Program-made: the position numbers and the translations under genes
From: an uncultured Alphaproteobacteria bacterium
Lineage (GTDB): Bacteria > Pseudomonadota > Alphaproteobacteria > Micavibrionales > Micavibrionaceae
Length of the DNA: 48,226 nt
Assembly (NCBI GenBank): GCA_937941545.1
Contig: CALDHI010000046.1
Coordinates: forward strand, 1 to 48,226
Reading direction: 5' to 3'
The notes under the pieces: model-generated
Database searches by the model: none
The model's input: the letters and a program-made list of their open reading frames with translations, nothing else
Told to the model about the DNA's origin: nothing
Shown here: in pieces, positions 10,187-44,389 of the stretch
How the letters are laid out: each line of letters opens with the position of its first letter
Numbering within the stretch: position 1 is the stretch's first letter

Positions 10187-10405
10187 TTTTTAGGTTTAAC
10201 CCTGTGTCTTTTGAAGGTTCTACAAGGTTTTAAAGAGAAAAGCCACCGAAAAATGCAGAGAGAGTTATTTTCTATAATTCGTCTGTGACCCGCTAAACTT
10301 AACGGTTTCCTAACCTTATGCGACTACTATGGTAGTCAGGGAAATGTGTTTCACAGATCATATTGGGGGGCACATACACAACGGAAGTCAATTTAGGGGT
10401 AAATT

Positions 10406-11944
10406 ATGGTTTCCAATATCAATATTCTGACGTCCAGTCAGAACACTCAGCTGTTTTCTATTCAACAAACATCGCGCGCGCTGGATGTGGCACAGGCACG
10501 CGTTGCATCGGGCAATCGGGTCAATAGCGCGCTGGATAATCCACAAAGCTTCTTCACGTCCTTTTCTTTAAAATCAGATGCGGCGCAACTCAATAGAGTG
10601 CTGGATAATATTGGGCAAGCGGTTCAAACGATTAATTCCGCTGAGAATTCGGCTAATACACTCAGCAATCTAATTGATACAGCGCGCAATGCGGCGCAAA
10701 ATTCACGTGATAATCTACAAAATGATGCACAGGATTTAGGCGCAAAAATTTTGAGCGATGCGCCTGTGATTTATTACCGCCTAGATGAAACATCAGGGAC
10801 AACCGCGACTAATCTAGGGTCCGGTGGAACAGCGTTGGATGGGACGTTTAGTGGCGGGGTGTCTCTCGATCAAGGATCACTTACATTTAGCCTAGGGAAC
10901 AACTCTGTCTCGTTTGACGGTGCAAATGATTTTGTGGGTATTCCAAACAGTCCGCTGGTCAATACCTCTGTGATTAACGAGCGCACAGTTGAGCTGACCT
11001 TTAAAGCTGATAATTTAGAAGGCCGTCAAGTTTTGTTTGAAGAAGGGGGCGGCACCAACGCTATCTCGCTTTATTTAGACGACGAAAGTCTTTATTTTGT
11101 TGCGCGGGATGCGGGTGATTTTGGCCCCTTTAATATAAGTGTCGAAGTTGAAGCAGGTAAAACATACCAAGCGTCATTTGTTTTGAGTAATAGCGATAGC
11201 AGCTTTAAGGGATATTTGAATGGCGAAGAAGTAGGAGCAGGCTTTATTAATCAAGGAATTTCTGGTCATAGTGGCGCGGTTTCTTTGGGGCGTAATTCAG
11301 GTGGAACATTTTTTCATGATGGCGCGAATAGCGGCAACGGCGAATATTTCCAAGGGCAAATTTCAGATTTTGCGCTTTATAATACGGCATTAACTCAAGA
11401 TGATTTGCGGGAGCGGTTTGATATCACGCAATTGGGAACGGCGGAAGGATATAAGCAAGACGTTCAAGATATTTTGGCGCAAGTGGATAGCTTGATTGAA
11501 GATTCGGGGTATCGCGGTACAAATTTACTAAACGGTGATAATTTCAAAATTGAATTGAATGCGAGCGGTACATCCAATTTATTGAGCCAAGGCGTTGATT
11601 TAACCTCTTCTGGTTTAGGGTTTACCAATTTTGATTTCACAGATTTTGATGGTATTGATAGCGCGATATCGGAGATTGATGATGCGAATGACACGATTGA
11701 GCGTTTTTCATCGGGGTTATCCAATGATTTGGGCCTTATTCAAAATAAACAAGATTTTCTGGCAAAGACGGCCAATACGTATGAGGCAGGCGCGGATGAT
11801 CTTACGCGCGCCGATTTAGATGAAGAGGGTGCGAATATTCTCGCTCTTCAAGCGCAACAAGCGATTCAAATTGAGACATTATCATTAAGCGCAAAGGGAT
11901 CGAACATTGCCGATTTCCTATCGCGTAATCCTTTAGAGAGTTAA
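10406..11944 (+). CDS. Flagellin-family protein with a central LamG (concanavalin A-like) domain
   Basis: The N-terminus, ASGNRVNSALDNPQSFFTSFSLKSDAAQLNRVLDNIGQAVQTINSAEN, and the C-terminus, GYRGTNLLNGDNFKIELNASG and QNKQDFLAKT...ADLDEEGANILALQAQQAIQIETLSLS, resemble flagellin D0/D1 helices of the alphaproteobacterial DUF1522-type flagellins. The middle is LamG_3-like. The ribosome-binding site AGGGG is present. Confidence 0.8.
   Translation: MVSNINILTSSQNTQLFSIQQTSRALDVAQARVASGNRVNSALDNPQSFFTSFSLKSDAAQLNRVLDNIGQAVQTINSAENSANTLSNLIDTARNAAQNSRDNLQNDAQDLGAKILSDAPVIYYRLDETSGTTATNLGSGGTALDGTFSGGVSLDQGSLTFSLGNNSVSFDGANDFVGIPNSPLVNTSVINERTVELTFKADNLEGRQVLFEEGGGTNAISLYLDDESLYFVARDAGDFGPFNISVEVEAGKTYQASFVLSNSDSSFKGYLNGEEVGAGFINQGISGHSGAVSLGRNSGGTFFHDGANSGNGEYFQGQISDFALYNTALTQDDLRERFDITQLGTAEGYKQDVQDILAQVDSLIEDSGYRGTNLLNGDNFKIELNASGTSNLLSQGVDLTSSGLGFTNFDFTDFDGIDSAISEIDDANDTIERFSSGLSNDLGLIQNKQDFLAKTANTYEAGADDLTRADLDEEGANILALQAQQAIQIETLSLSAKGSNIADFLSRNPLES
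10751..11419 (+). other. LamG_3-like domain inserted in the flagellin variable region
   Basis: VIYYRLDETSGTTATNLGSGG...SVSFDGANDFVGIPNSP...RTVELTFKAD...GKTYQASFVLS...FKGYLNGEEVG...GEYFQGQISDFALYNTALTQDDL follows the canonical Laminin_G_3 pattern. Confidence 0.75.
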
Positions 11945-11963: not shown

Positions 11964-11998
11964 AGAGCCTCAGGCGCGTAAACGCGCTACGGCTTTCC
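11964..11998 (+). repeat. HP-2 hairpin repeat, copy b (AGAGCCTCAGGCGCGTAAACGCGCTACGGCTTTCC), possibly the flagellin gene terminator
   Basis: AGCC-TCAG-GCGCG-TAAA-CGCGC-TAC-GGCT is followed by the T-rich TTCCTTTG, 20 nt after the stop. The small hairpin TTAACAAG-N6-CTTGTTAA (11941-11962) precedes it. Confidence 0.6.
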
Positions 11999-12132: not shown

Positions 12133-12162
12133 CGTAGCGCGTTTACGCGCCTGAGTGCACTT
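12133..12162 (-). repeat. HP-2 hairpin repeat, copy c (inverted relative to copy b)
   Basis: CGTAGCGCGTTTACGCGCCTGAGTGCACTT is the reverse complement of the copy b core. Confidence 0.7.
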
Positions 12163-12170
12163 AAAGAAAG

Positions 12171-12213
12171 TTAAAAAAAAGCGTAGCGGGCTTGCCCGCC
12201 TGAGCGCACTTAA
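12171..12213 (-). terminator. HP-2 copy d serving as the rho-independent terminator of the DUF1674 gene
   Basis: On the minus strand it reads GCGC-TCAG-GCGGG-CAAG-CCCGC-TA-CGC followed by T8. It begins 3 nt after the TAG stop. Confidence 0.65.
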
Positions 12214-12216
12214 AAC

Positions 12217-14205: not shown

Positions 14206-14231
14206 CGCGTAGCGCGTTTACGCGCCTGAGC
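14206..14231 (-). repeat. HP-2 hairpin repeat, copy e
   Basis: CGCGTAGCGCGTTTACGCGCCTGAGC lies 22 nt right of PAL-1 copy C. Confidence 0.7.
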
Positions 14232-15110: not shown

Positions 15111-16763
15111 ATGCCCCTCCTCGATTCCCTGCAAACTAATGTCATACGTAAAGTCCGCACCCATGCGGGCCGTTTGACGTATAATTCGCCGCTCTATAAT
15201 TGGAGCCTTGGCGGTACGATTCCTGATCGTTTGATATTTAGCCCGTGTGATTTATGGCCGGGCGATACGGACAGTGCGCGTTGGTTGATTCACTCTGGCG
15301 CGTTCACCATTGGCGGTGATCGGTTAGAGCTTCATAACGCAGATTGGAAGCCATCGGGCGTTGAGCAACATTGGATAGACCATATTCATGGGTTTGATTG
15401 GATACGTGATTTACGCGCCCTTGGCGGCGATGTTGGGCGCAAGTCTGCGCGCATGATGATATTGAACTGGATTGAAAACCATCAGGGATGGGATGAGGAA
15501 ATCTGGCGCAGTGATATCGTGGGTAAGCGCCTCGGCAATTGGTTGGCGGGATATGATTTTTTTGGTGAAAGCGCGGATGAAGAATTTCAAGAATTGTTCC
15601 TCGATAGTGTCGTGCGACAGCTTCGCCACTTAGGGCGTGCGCTCCCTGGAATGCTGACAGGCTTACCGCTTCTTTATGCGATTAAAGGATTGGCCTATGG
15701 CGGTCTAACATTAGAGGGGCGTGAGAATTATCTGGAGCAAGCGCTCAATTTACTGGATGAGCAAATCGACAAACAGATTCTAAGTGATGGTGGACATATA
15801 ACGCGTAACCCTCAAAACTTAATGGAAACGATACGTATCTTAATTGACTTGCGTTCTGCTATTCGCCAAGGCGGTTATCCGGCTATTGCGAAGATACAAT
15901 ATGGTTTGGATCGCGCTGTGCCTGCGTTGCGTTTTTTCCGTCATGGGGATGGCGGGTTTGCGCTGTTTAATAACGCCCAAGAAAGCACCGCCGAGAAAAT
16001 CAAAAACACGATTATGCAGGCGTCTTCAAAAGCCCGTACATTGAACTCACTTCCCCATACGGGGTATGAGCGTATCAGTATGGGCCGGTCTTTGTTGATT
16101 GCGGATGCAGGAAAACCCCCGACTTGGCCACATGATCATCAGGCGCATATCGCGCCGCTATCGTTTGAGTTTAGCCATGGGCGCGAACGGATTTTCGTCA
16201 ATTGCGGAACGCACCCCACCAGCCATCAATGGCAAGATGCCCTGCGCTCTACGCCTGCGCATAACACGCTAATTATTGATGATCGAAATATGTGTGACCT
16301 GAATAAAGACGGCACAATGGGGCATCGCCCAAAAACCGTTGTGGTGGATCGTGATGATAAGAAAGACGGCGTGCTGGTTGATGCGTGCCATGATGGTTAC
16401 GTGCCGATTAATGGCATTATGCATAGACGCCGCTTTTATTTAACGGGCAAGGGGCATGATTTCCGCGGGGAAGATAATTTGACTTGCGCCACGGGTTTGG
16501 CGGCTCCTCATAATGTCGCGCTCCGCTTCCACCTTCACCCTAAGGTAATGGTTAGCTTGATTAAAGGTGGCGAAGAAGCGTTGTTAAGATTGAATAACGG
16601 AACAGGGTGGCGCTTCACCGCGAACGGTGGAAAACTGGAATTGGAAAACTCTGTCTATCTCGGTCAAGGCATTCGCCCGCGTAAAACCAAACAGCTGGTC
16701 ATCAAAGGCGTCATGGACACCGACCACAGCCAATTCAAATGGGCATTGCAGTTGGAGAGTTAG
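15111..16763 (+). CDS. Heparinase II/III-like family protein (conserved alphaproteobacterial)
   Basis: Size, position after rpe and motifs (HGFDWIRDL, GGH..RNP, FRHGDGGFALFNN, HAHNTL) match proteins usually annotated as heparinase II/III-like in Alphaproteobacteria. Confidence 0.7.
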   Translation: MPLLDSLQTNVIRKVRTHAGRLTYNSPLYNWSLGGTIPDRLIFSPCDLWPGDTDSARWLIHSGAFTIGGDRLELHNADWKPSGVEQHWIDHIHGFDWIRDLRALGGDVGRKSARMMILNWIENHQGWDEEIWRSDIVGKRLGNWLAGYDFFGESADEEFQELFLDSVVRQLRHLGRALPGMLTGLPLLYAIKGLAYGGLTLEGRENYLEQALNLLDEQIDKQILSDGGHITRNPQNLMETIRILIDLRSAIRQGGYPAIAKIQYGLDRAVPALRFFRHGDGGFALFNNAQESTAEKIKNTIMQASSKARTLNSLPHTGYERISMGRSLLIADAGKPPTWPHDHQAHIAPLSFEFSHGRERIFVNCGTHPTSHQWQDALRSTPAHNTLIIDDRNMCDLNKDGTMGHRPKTVVVDRDDKKDGVLVDACHDGYVPINGIMHRRRFYLTGKGHDFRGEDNLTCATGLAAPHNVALRFHLHPKVMVSLIKGGEEALLRLNNGTGWRFTANGGKLELENSVYLGQGIRPRKTKQLVIKGVMDTDHSQFKWALQLES

Positions 16764-28629: not shown

Positions 28630-28670
28630 AAGGAAAGCCTTAGCGGGTTTACCCGCCTGAGGCTCTTGAA
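28630..28670 (-). repeat. HP-2 hairpin repeat, copy f
   Basis: AAGGAAAGCCTTAGCGGGTTTACCCGCCTGAGGCTCTTGAA is essentially the reverse complement of copy b, with compensatory changes in the stem. Confidence 0.75.
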
Positions 28671-43093: not shown

Positions 43094-44389
43094 TCAATCA
43101 AGAATTGCATCTTCTGTGTTGGCGGCGGATAAGTCTGTTTTGTCCAAAATTGCACCCGTTAAATCGGCACGACGAAGGTCACAGCCTTCAAGTTTTGCGC
43201 CCGTTAAGTCACACCCCATCAGGATTGAATCTTTCAAATCACAATTTTGTAAATCGGCATAGCGCATTTTTGAGCCACTTAGGTTGGTACGTTGAACGCG
43301 AACCCCTGCGCCGTTCGGGCTATCAAATCGTAAACCAGATAATTTAGCGCCCTTCAACTCCGCACGGTTGAGAACAGTATTTTGCAAAGATGAGCCACGT
43401 AAATCCGCACCAATCATTTTACAGTCTCTGAATGTTGAGCCATCAAGGGTTGCGCTTTGCATCTGTGCTTTGCTTAAATCTTGCCCCATAAAATTTGTTT
43501 CAAGGGCTTTGAAGGCGGTCATTGGGACACTGCGCAAATTGATAGCGTCGCGCATGTCCAGCCCACTTAAATCCATTTGAGCGCCGTTTTTACCGCCGCT
43601 GGCAACCCACGCACTGTGGTTAGCCATGATCTCTTCTATATCTTGGCCTGATTGTTCCAATGTTTGTTTTGTTAAATCATCACCAATCATGCTATCTAAT
43701 TTTGCGCCTTTCATGTCAACAGCGTTTAAGACTGTCCCGCGCATCACGGTGTCTTGCAGATTGGCATCACTTAAATCTGACCCTGTAAGGTCTGCATCAG
43801 TTAGGTTTGCCCCTTCAAAGTTACCGCCTGTAAAGACCGCTTCGCTCATGGTCACGCCTGTCATATCCGCATCAGAGAAATCAGCTGATATGGCTTTGAC
43901 GCCAGATAAATTTGTTTCGGATAATTTCGCGCCAGTAAAGATAGTATTGAAAGAGGCTTCGCCATCTTGATTGTTACGGGGGCGATTGCTCAATAAGCCA
44001 TCACTTCCCTGGCTCATGATTTTACCTTCGCGTAAATCAGCAGAGGCCAAGTCAGCGCCTGTTAAATTAGCGCCCGCAACATACGCGCCGCGAAAGTCGG
44101 CACGTTTGAAATTAGCATGGCTTAAATTGGCGTTGCTTAAATCACAGGCAAAAAAACAGCAAGAAGTGAAGTCGCCATTGGATAAATCTGCATTGACCAA
44201 GACTGATCCTGTTAAGTCCGCTTGTGATAGATCCGCTTTCTTGAAAGATAGGCCTGTCATATCACAGAATTTCAGCATGGCACGTTGCCCACCCTTTTGA
44301 CTACGCATAAATTTTGCGTGCTTATTTAGGGCTTCGTTTAATTCCCGTTGGGAAAGTTTTTTCAGGCTGGAGTTTTCATCGGTTGTCAT
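43094..44389 (-). CDS. Pentapeptide-repeat protein, 431 aa, two tandem modules
   Basis: Long runs of A(D/N)LxG-type pentapeptides such as ADLSQADLTGSVLVNADLSNGDF. Two similar leader segments occur: NKHAKFMRSQKGGQRAML and ANHSAWVASGGKNGAQMDL. Confidence 0.85.
   Translation of the reverse strand: MTTDENSSLKKLSQRELNEALNKHAKFMRSQKGGQRAMLKFCDMTGLSFKKADLSQADLTGSVLVNADLSNGDFTSCCFFACDLSNANLSHANFKRADFRGAYVAGANLTGADLASADLREGKIMSQGSDGLLSNRPRNNQDGEASFNTIFTGAKLSETNLSGVKAISADFSDADMTGVTMSEAVFTGGNFEGANLTDADLTGSDLSDANLQDTVMRGTVLNAVDMKGAKLDSMIGDDLTKQTLEQSGQDIEEIMANHSAWVASGGKNGAQMDLSGLDMRDAINLRSVPMTAFKALETNFMGQDLSKAQMQSATLDGSTFRDCKMIGADLRGSSLQNTVLNRAELKGAKLSGLRFDSPNGAGVRVQRTNLSGSKMRYADLQNCDLKDSILMGCDLTGAKLEGCDLRRADLTGAILDKTDLSAANTEDAILD

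Follow-up and report, generated by a model that had tools for sequence, protein, structure and literature searches.

A flagellin paralogue of an uncultured alphaproteobacterium carries a conserved LamG module between its ND1a and ND1b helices

Results

A flagellin core divided by a LamG module

We analysed a window of 48,226 nucleotides from an uncultured alphaproteobacterium (positions 1 to 48,226 of contig CALDHI010000046.1, assembly GCA_937941545.1). One gene of this window encodes a real flagellin-family protein carrying a single LamG jelly roll, which is inserted into an otherwise complete flagellin core. Sequence comparisons and structure models lead us to propose, with a probability of roughly 0.45, that the protein is a specialised minor filament subunit that would display a ligand-binding module. 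The parts of the gene are as follows; coordinates are those of the window.

10406..11944, + strand: LamG flagellin open reading frame (ORF), ATG start, 512 residues, stop codon at 11942..11944
10406..10735, + strand: N-terminal core, codons 1-110, with a disordered start, the ND0 helix (residues 10-35) and the ND1a helix (residues 46-106)
10736..11431, + strand: LamG module with linker helices, codons 111-342, from Pfam Laminin_G_3 and the AlphaFold2 (AF2) model
11432..11941, + strand: C-terminal core, codons 343-512, from NCBIfam flagellin matches and Caulobacter flagellin residues 111-266

A sequence-only reading of the window had assigned about 110 N-terminal and 170 C-terminal residues to a flagellin core and the residues between them to a LamG-type domain. 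Both assignments were borne out by the profile matches and the structure model, and all the peptide strings that it quoted are present in the translation of 10406-11944. Pfam Flagellin_N (PF00669) matched residues 5-110 with 36.5 bits against a cutoff of 26.6 (E=6e-9, profile positions 1-107), and Caulobacter flagellin residues 14-108 were aligned to the N-terminal block. Laminin_G_3 (PF13385) matched residues 171-333 with 53.5 bits against a cutoff of 27.6 (E=4e-14). The C-terminal ~170 residues resemble flagellins: residues 351-497 matched the NCBIfam models PRK12688 and PRK14708 (E~1e-38), which we take to be Bradyrhizobium-type flagellins, and the PDB sequences of Caulobacter FljK, FljL, FljM and FljN were matched at E~6e-9. 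The scores of 132.9 and 128.1 bits are below the membership cutoffs of PRK12688 (614) and PRK14708 (1384); judged by these profiles, the window protein is a relative of the two subfamilies, not a member. The profile check also had a negative side, since neither Flagellin_C (PF00700) nor DUF1522 (PF07482) matched the window protein at E<=1, while a precomputed PF00700 match exists in a few relatives. The label 'DUF1522-type' given by the sequence-only reading thus lacks direct profile support, and only the C-terminal core resembles PRK12688/PRK14708. Pfam gave no match to RTX nonapeptide repeats (PF00353, HemolysinCabind) in the window protein.

The AF2 model, for which the multiple sequence alignment comprised 79 family sequences, had a predicted local distance difference test score (pLDDT) of 91.1 and a predicted template modelling score (pTM) of 0.75. 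It contains, in order, ND0, ND1a, a short helix, the beta-sandwich, a helix, ND1b, a beta-hairpin, CD1 and CD0. The beta-sandwich (residues 122-325) is flanked by the linker helices (residues 111-117 and 331-341), and ND1b (residues 343-366) has the flagellin motif YRGTNLLNG at its end. The beta-hairpin (residues 380-394), CD1 (414-467) and CD0 (471-496) are followed by a tail of low confidence (residues 497-512), which runs past the canonical flagellin end. In the model the D0/D1 fold is thus complete, including ND0, ND1a, ND1b, the hairpin, CD1 and CD0. Foldseek with this model retrieved the filament subunits of H. pylori, P. aeruginosa and G. thiophilus with a probability of 1.0, and the LamG part retrieved the Hc-N domain of botulinum neurotoxin (BoNT), the trans-sialidase lectin domain, a GH43 accessory domain and pentraxins.

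When residues 111-342 were removed in silico, the 232-residue insert left a remainder of 280 residues, of which residues 14-268 aligned in one stretch with residues 14-266 of the 273-residue Caulobacter flagellins. The E value changed from 5.6e-9 for the intact protein, which aligned in two stretches, to 1.8e-12, and the Flagellin_N match increased to 43.3 bits and covered profile positions 1-138 of 139. Since excision restores a contiguous Caulobacter alignment and a near-complete Flagellin_N match, LamG is a discrete insertion within the Flagellin_N domain, in the ND1a-ND1b loop. The classical site differs: the excised construct was contiguous up to residue ~176-181 of the Campylobacter and Helicobacter flagellins, where outer domains start. 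The window protein does not have the classical arrangement, in which a hypervariable outer domain follows the ND1 beta-hairpin. This is a departure from the classical layout and not from the flagellin core. Among the matches of the PDB sequence and fold searches there was no solved flagellin with an outer domain between ND1a and ND1b. In Salmonella FliC, D2 emerges from the outer end of D1, where the ND1a-ND1b loop is also located, so that, by analogy, display of LamG from this loop on the filament surface is plausible.

A family linked to the flagellar operon

The LamG flagellins form a family of ~190 listed protein clusters and 53 genomes. Among the matches listed by the first database search were 83 further clusters at 90% identity, of 460-536 residues and down to 34% identity, nearly all with a precomputed Flagellin_N and/or Laminin_G_3 match. 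A second search with a distant member as query added at least 120 clusters of the same kind (845 proteins at E<=1e-30); no Micavibrio aeruginosavorus protein was found among its 120 best matches. All members from the database searches derive from metagenomes or metagenome-assembled genomes (MAGs), and their source names are 'LamG-like jellyroll fold domain-containing protein', 'hypothetical protein', 'flagellin' or, for some from JGI, 'flagellin-like hook-associated protein FlgL'. The architecture is widespread in MAGs and not singular. It is an uncharacterised one, and in the literature searched we found no description of a flagellin with a LamG or concanavalin-like outer domain.

A scan of species-representative genomes yielded 231 related loci, the best 80 of which were numbered (L) and analysed; all ORFs of these 80 loci were clustered and the recurrent ones annotated. 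The flagellin-type architecture was present in 59 of the 80 loci, complete or cut by a contig end, from 53 assemblies with titles that are mostly 'uncultured Micavibrio sp.' or unclassified Alphaproteobacteria, with few other labels. Two copies were seen in six assemblies among these loci, and those of L029 form a tandem pair. When 56 full-length members were placed in a neighbour-joining tree, three main groups emerged, namely a clade in the flgE operon, a clade with sigma-54 promoters (n=14) and the clade of the window copy. The three MAGs closest to the window (CALDTV01, JALZUF01, JBCCKS01) each contain one window-clade copy and one sigma-54-clade copy.

In nine genomes (L020, L025, L030, L038, L041, L045, L046, L047, L051) the LamG flagellin gene directly follows flgE in an operon of the order dksA-fliX-flgI-flgJ-like-(two small ORFs)-fliK-flgD-flgE-[LamG flagellin]-[IN-type flagellin]-flbT-flaF-flaG-like-fliF-fliG-fliH-fliN-motA. 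The LamG flagellin of this operon has 525-540 residues. The second flagellin, of 546-565 residues, contains Flagellin_N, Flagellin_IN and Flagellin_C and is referred to as IN-type. The cores of the two are 53-62% identical, and most of the operon-linked LamG copies end as the IN-type flagellin does (...SVLRLF). A third flagellin-like class of ~440 residues is encoded upstream of dksA in some loci. The motif TGG[CT]A[CT]-N5-TTGC of sigma-54 promoters was present in 19 of the 56 upstream regions, where the background rate in 2.6 Mb would predict 0.26, and one clade has a near-consensus promoter of this type at -44 to -61 in 13 of its 14 members. Late flagellin genes of Caulobacter are sigma-54 dependent, with control by FlbT and FlaF. 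Through the operon linkage and the sigma-54 promoters of its other clades, the LamG flagellin family is tied to the flagellum.

The three flagellin classes share their N-terminal ~105 residues, after which the alignment resumes at ND1b. An AF2 model of an IN-type flagellin (P0094, pLDDT 77) has a beta-rich insert between ND1a (residues 45-108) and ND1b (residues 415-438). Because the IN-type and the third class share the ND1a-ND1b position, insertion at this site is a trait of an alphaproteobacterial flagellin clade to which the LamG family belongs as one lineage. The sequence-only reading had placed LamG in the 'variable region' of flagellin; it is located instead within Flagellin_N, at the site common to the other classes of the clade. 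All classes seem to place their outer domains between ND1a and ND1b (P0094 model; L047 11794-13482; L041 256-1575), and the large PRK12688/PRK14708 flagellins are probably included in this topology, judging from the profile alignments.

The location after flgE also fits another identity, that of the hook-filament junction protein (a FlgL/HAP3 equivalent) or of a single-layer adaptor. Many alphaproteobacteria have flgE followed by flgK-flgL-flaF-flbT, and here the order is flgE-[LamG protein]-[flagellin]-flbT-flaF. No protein of the fetched clusters reaches the FlgL equivalog level, some members are called FlgL by JGI, and the published gene list of Micavibrio ARL-13 has FlgK and no FlgL (PMC3189940). 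The sequences themselves argue against this identity. The FlgL model TIGR02550 matched the N-terminus only, with 21.2 bits against a cutoff of 127.2, and an operon-linked member had no FlgL match at E<=0.001. The C-terminus matched flagellin subfamily models at E~1e-38 to 1e-46; all three flagellin classes match the same subfamily models and none does so at the FlgL equivalog level. The PDB sequence matches included many flagellins and no FlgL structure. There are genomes with at least two LamG paralogues, some with sigma-54 promoters, unlike the single-copy flgL, and flgK is not adjacent in any locus. A FlgL identity was rejected on the profile scores, the copy number and the PDB matches, and a junction or adaptor role is very improbable.

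Conservation of the LamG module

In the 79-sequence alignment, LamG is the most conserved region, with a mean pairwise identity of 0.50 and at least 90% conservation in 37 of 204 columns; the mean pairwise identity of the core helices is 0.27-0.46. A comparison of the two flagellins co-encoded in the nine operon genomes gave the following identities.

IN-type flagellin: N-core 83%, C-core 75%, insert 41%
LamG-type flagellin: N-core 59%, C-core 56%, insert 67%

The IN-type flagellin shows the classical pattern of a conserved core and a hypervariable insert, whereas the LamG type shows the opposite. The insert that had been taken as a variable region is the most conserved part of the protein, and we infer from these alignments that the LamG module is the part under selection.

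Proteins of 700-3400 residues in the same kind of genome contain the same subtype of module, with both linker helices and 40-50% identity. The scanned RTX relatives (~1000-1400 residues) contain 10-14 RTX repeat matches together with C-type lectin, H-type lectin or tail-fibre-like domains. Of the 41 positions that are at least 90% conserved in flagellin LamG, 33 are identically conserved in 27 RTX LamG modules. The shared set comprises N186, E196, R207, Q208, E212, E213, Y223, Y254, D261, H288, H304, D305 and N326, and the window protein has one substitution in it.

11186-11188, + strand: codon 261, Ser in place of Asp, which is present in 74 of 79 family members and 93% of RTX LamG modules

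Since these 33 positions are the same in RTX modules, the constraint belongs to the LamG module and not to filament packing. When the module profile was compared with solved structures, only binding domains were found: an S-layer-associated LamG (4QVS), PTX3, SAP-like pentraxins and the N-terminal lectin-like domain of pneumococcal sialidase B. An enzymatic jelly roll of the GH16 or PL7 kind was considered for the conserved E/R/Q/H/Y cluster, and no such family was found by Pfam, Foldseek or the PDB profile search. The HEXXH motif is absent from the window protein, which has only two histidines.

These data bear on the possibility that LamG is purely structural, forming a stiffening outer layer of a filament for swimming in viscous media or biofilms without any external ligand. 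Lattices of outer domains that modulate motility are documented in other flagellins (PMC10256154, PMC11532411), the high conservation of the outer domain could reflect lattice contacts, and the confident AF2 linkers between the domains suggest a fixed orientation. The 33 positions, which include the whole polar cluster, are nevertheless identical in RTX proteins, which are not filament subunits, and the nearest solved relatives are ligand-binding modules. A purely structural role is quite improbable.

Large RTX proteins with 8-14 calcium-binding repeat matches and C-type lectin, H-type lectin, gp53-like tail-fibre and LamG domains are encoded in L068 (8006-11074), L057 (6839-11080) and L069 (7226-11077). 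RTX-type ORFs of 589-632 residues adjoin LamG flagellin genes of the sigma-54 clade divergently in three loci. The protein of L077 (7661-9526; 621 residues) was scanned and is of the RTX/C-type-lectin kind; those of L018 (7816-9714) and L034 (7950-9719) are assigned to it through membership of the same ORF cluster.

Upstream region of the window copy

The following elements precede the window gene.

10299..10330, + strand: promoter-like element TTAA-N7-CTAA-N11-TACTAT, a pair of CtrA-box-like half-sites with a -10-like hexamer
10322..10337, + strand: palindrome GACTACTATGGTAGTC with a TAC-N4-GTA core, overlapping the -10-like hexamer (sequence inspection)
10396..10399, + strand: Shine-Dalgarno sequence GGGG, 6 nt upstream of the ATG (sequence inspection)

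An element of the form [T/C]TAA-N7-NTAA-N11-TAC(C/T)AT was found 69-107 bp upstream of the gene in six of six members of the window subclade, a pattern derived post hoc from these six sequences. The same spaced element was present in four independently fetched orthologues, namely L088, which has a different genomic context, L090 and, as a variant, L089 and L091. Palindromes equivalent to GACTACTATGGTAGTC were found in L002, L005, L088, L089 and L091; the window palindrome may be an operator or the 5' end of the transcript. Orthologues have a G-rich Shine-Dalgarno sequence with a hairpin of the 5' untranslated region ahead of it. The sigma-54 motif is absent upstream of the window copy, and a promoter of this type was rejected for it. 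A sigma-28 promoter was also rejected, as no convincing match to TAAA-N15-GCCGATAA was found anywhere, and a simple sigma-70 and terminator scan gave nothing above the shuffled expectation.

Neighbouring genes

The scanned ORFs of the window are housekeeping genes (typA, DUF1674, chorismate mutase, rsmB, rpe, radA, purF, rpoA, ribosomal proteins, mutL, pgi and others). Of the other window ORFs of at least ~120 residues covered by the Pfam scan, none was recognised as a gene for the flagellum, chemotaxis or export, and five had no match; the scan did not extend to the truncated ORF at the start of the window or to three short ones close to the ribosomal-protein cluster. Within this scope the sequence-only reading was correct in stating that the gene stands alone. 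Its solitude carries little weight: in at least nine genomes relatives form part of an entire flagellar operon, and sigma-54 promoters occur in another clade. No matches came from Rfam and tRNA scans of the window. The typA/DUF1674 neighbourhood is kept only among the closest orthologues, and the others are located in unrelated housekeeping contexts.

A palindrome resembling repetitive extragenic palindromic (REP) elements, CGTAGCGCGTTTACGCGCCTGAG, with an internal GCGCG-N4-CGCGC hairpin, occurs in five intergenic copies, where zero are expected by chance.

11969-11991, - strand: REP-like palindrome
12133-12165: REP-like palindrome
12182-12214: REP-like palindrome
14208-14230: REP-like palindrome
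28639-28661: REP-like palindrome

The stretch that separates the flagellin gene from the convergent DUF1674 gene contains three of the copies. The 'repeat nest' reported beside the gene is thus present, but it consists of a palindrome dispersed over the window and unrelated to the flagellin gene, and it was rejected as a part of that gene. Two window proteins are unexplained amid the housekeeping genes: a heparinase II/III-like protein (15111-16763) beside rpe, with the synteny also in L001, L003 and L005, and a 431-residue pentapeptide-repeat protein (43094-44389) between mutL and pgi.

Among the 80 loci no universally conserved partner gene (chaperone, cap or glycosyltransferase) was found. 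The commonest neighbour of the LamG flagellin is a GGDEF diguanylate cyclase, present in 20 of 80 loci (e.g., L077 11738-12484, L020 20791-22098, L025 20149-21531); the remaining genes that recur beside dispersed copies have housekeeping functions. A GGDEF protein also closes the flagellar operon after motA, and these positions suggest cyclic di-GMP control of a switch between motility and attachment. A ~550-residue S-adenosylmethionine methyltransferase adjoins the LamG flagellin in four loci (L038 11624-14946, L046 11514-13223, L089 80-1756, L091 64-1713). The L038 enzyme has MethyTransf_Reg and PKMT C-terminal domains, as in the rickettsial type of protein-lysine methyltransferase, and a TPR-sulfotransferase is encoded next to it; the two are candidate flagellin-modifying enzymes. 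Some window-clade copies are located beside an alginate-like cluster for polysaccharide modification (AlgF, MBOAT/AlgI-like, two ALGX, alginate lyase, GT2 and UDP-glucose/GDP-mannose dehydrogenase; L089 3517-13469, L091 3477-9419), and an MBOAT protein and a carrier protein are encoded near the window-clade copy of L084 (16471-19559). The alginate-like cluster may be a coincidence or a link to surface glycans.

Discussion

A proposed filament subunit and its rival, a secreted lectin

We propose that the window gene is a flagellin paralogue of an uncultured alphaproteobacterium with nearest relatives mostly labelled Micavibrio, built from a minimal Caulobacter-type D0/D1 core of 280 residues and a LamG of 232 residues in the ND1a-ND1b loop. 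As in other flagellins there is no signal peptide, and the flagellar type III export channel would be the route out of the cell; that the protein is a flagellin-family member exported by the flagellar apparatus is highly probable. Using D0/D1, the protein would assemble alongside the major IN-type flagellin, either as a minor subunit or as one confined to a segment, and its incorporation into the filament is somewhat more probable than not. The most likely function of the LamG module is ligand binding, with a surface glycan as the probable ligand and a possible dependence on calcium; we consider binding of an external ligand to be somewhat more probable than not. Part of the flagellum would then become a device for contact or adhesion, e.g., to prey or matrix. 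The window copy would represent a paralogue clade that left the flagellar operon and is driven by a conserved CtrA-box-like promoter of its own instead of a sigma-54 promoter.

Several observations weigh against this proposal. The D0/D1 core of the LamG paralogue is much less conserved than that of the IN-type flagellin, and therefore its polymerisation surface would be under weaker constraint. Members of the sigma-54 clade and the window clade have variable C-terminal extensions, 5-12 residues past the canonical end (the window protein ends ...IADFLSRNPLES), which in a bulk filament would project into the narrow channel at its centre. Both the faster evolution of the core and the extended C-terminus in the window clade call for caution about a filament densely coated with LamG. 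The window copy has neither a flagellar neighbour in 48 kb nor a sigma-54 motif. The CtrA box has the consensus TTAA-N7-TTAAC, and the element at 10299..10330 is CtrA-box-like by its likeness to this consensus, as a putative promoter of the window's paralogue clade. For the source organism, of which the analysis covered this 48-kb contig and shorter copies, a flagellar apparatus is presumed. The MAGs carry a mixture of taxonomic labels (Micavibrio, Rhodospirillales, Emcibacteraceae, unclassified), so that the window organism is a putative predator. The window protein keeps the conserved polar set except for D261, and Ser at this position might alter ligand or metal binding in the window copy.

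The relaxed core and the C-terminal extension keep alive a serious rival, in which the protein is a secreted, non-polymerising flagellin-like lectin, free or loosely attached in analogy to FlaC, and the termini are kept as an export signal and a chaperone-binding scaffold. A core that evolves faster than LamG and than the core of the co-encoded major flagellin is consistent with such a protein. The solitary window gene with a non-sigma-54 promoter of its own and the presence of the same LamG module in secreted RTX proteins also accord with it. It is less easily reconciled with the retention of all D0/D1 elements, including the beta-hairpin, in a confident canonical geometry, nor does it account for the operon-linked clade with its canonical termini and its core identity to the major flagellin. 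FlaC-type proteins are short and have no outer domain, and where multi-copy flagellin paralogues have been studied, most are part of the filament. We regard a secreted lectin as somewhat unlikely and favour the filament subunit; the two functional alternatives of the sequence-only reading, an adhesive filament and a co-opted protein that is secreted, are thus both retained.

The genus Micavibrio is an epibiotic predator. Cells bear one polar flagellum without a sheath, flagellar genes reach high expression during the attack phase, when prey is sought, and the genus has an expanded set of 'hemolysin-related' RTX proteins, one with a lectin domain, which have been proposed to serve in prey recognition and adhesion (PMC3189940). 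ARL-13 has one annotated flagellin, GMV_775 (1752 nt), beside flbT-flaF, with an expression index of 632.7 in the attack phase and 191.7 in the attachment phase. The unannotated genes GMV_1728 (2055 nt) and GMV_1729 (1713 nt) follow flgD and are succeeded by genes for an acetyltransferase and glycyl-tRNA synthetase (PMC3189940, supplementary file 4). GMV_1729, with expression values of 11.7 and 10.8, is ~50-fold below GMV_775 in the same data (PMC3189940). It may correspond to the LamG flagellin by its position, as the MAGs have flgE and the LamG flagellin at this place, and in that case its low expression would speak for the secreted lectin.

A more speculative extension, which we consider unlikely, is that in Micavibrio-like predators a lectin-coated filament or segment binds prey glycans with the same module as the RTX adhesins, and that the paralogues (flgE operon, sigma-54 and CtrA-like) give rise to segments differing in specificity or timing. 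If this were true, the propeller itself would be what first brings the predator into contact with its prey, and the flagellum would double as a prey-recognition organelle. Outer domains of flagellins are normally treated as hypervariable surface decoration at one fixed site. The present family differs in three respects, namely the ND1a-ND1b insertion, an outer domain more conserved than the core, and a module shared with lectin-rich secreted RTX proteins in genomes that are labelled as those of bacterial predators. If the protein is in the filament, it would be a concrete candidate for the initial recognition or holding of prey by epibiotic predators, and the second clear case, after the enzymatic flagellins, of a flagellum built for more than swimming.

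Comparison with known systems

The closest structural reference is the set of Caulobacter crescentus flagellins FljK, FljL, FljM and FljN (PDB 6xky, 8uxj, 8uxn, 9cef), which have the same D0/D1 core and likewise belong to a multi-flagellin system. Sigma-54 motifs and flbT/flaF genes, as in Caulobacter, occur in loci of the LamG family. The Caulobacter flagellins have no outer domain, whereas here a 232-residue LamG is located between the equivalents of FljK residues 108 and 111. PRK12688/PRK14708 and the IN-type flagellins (ARL-13 GMV_775-like; P0085-P0119) share the block of ND1b, hairpin, CD1 and CD0 with the LamG family at E values of 1e-38 to 1e-59. The IN-type flagellin has the same ND1a-ND1b site and, in nine genomes, the same operon as the LamG flagellin. 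Its inserts contain Flagellin_IN and are beta-rich and hypervariable (41%) beside a conserved core (83%, 75%), which is the opposite of the LamG family.

In flagellinolysin, the canonical hypervariable site holds a metallopeptidase module. Flagellins of this kind, the 'flagella_HEXXH' peptidase cluster of PMC11532411, have in common with the LamG family the display of a functional module on a flagellin scaffold. The LamG module differs in being non-enzymatic and lectin/pentraxin-like and in its location in the ND1a-ND1b loop. A large AlphaFold survey of flagellin outer domains reported Ig-like, beta-barrel, helical, HEXXH-peptidase, pectate-lyase-like and WD40 folds in its results section, and a text search of the paper found no mention of LamG, jelly, concanavalin or lectin (PMC11532411). 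In that survey the first 163 and the last 100 residues were trimmed and only UniProt entries annotated 'flagellin' were included (PMC11532411). Because of the fixed-length trimming and the annotation filter, such a survey would cut through the LamG module and miss most members of this clade. The outer domains of the other classes with the ND1a-ND1b site would likewise be mis-defined by trimming to fixed lengths.

The RTX 'hemolysin-related' proteins of Micavibrio (PMC3189940) have the LamG module in common with the window protein, with 40-50% identity and the same polar cluster, and are encoded in the same kind of genome. With 600-1400 residues, 8-14 repeat matches and C- or H-type lectin domains, they are substrates of type I secretion, whereas the window protein has no RTX repeats. 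FlaC shares the flagellin-like termini; the LamG family keeps the full D1 and the hairpin and adds a large conserved domain. FlaC of Campylobacter jejuni, whose gene is separate from the flagellin genes, is a secreted, non-filament flagellin homologue that leaves the cell through the flagellar apparatus; it is short, with no central domain.

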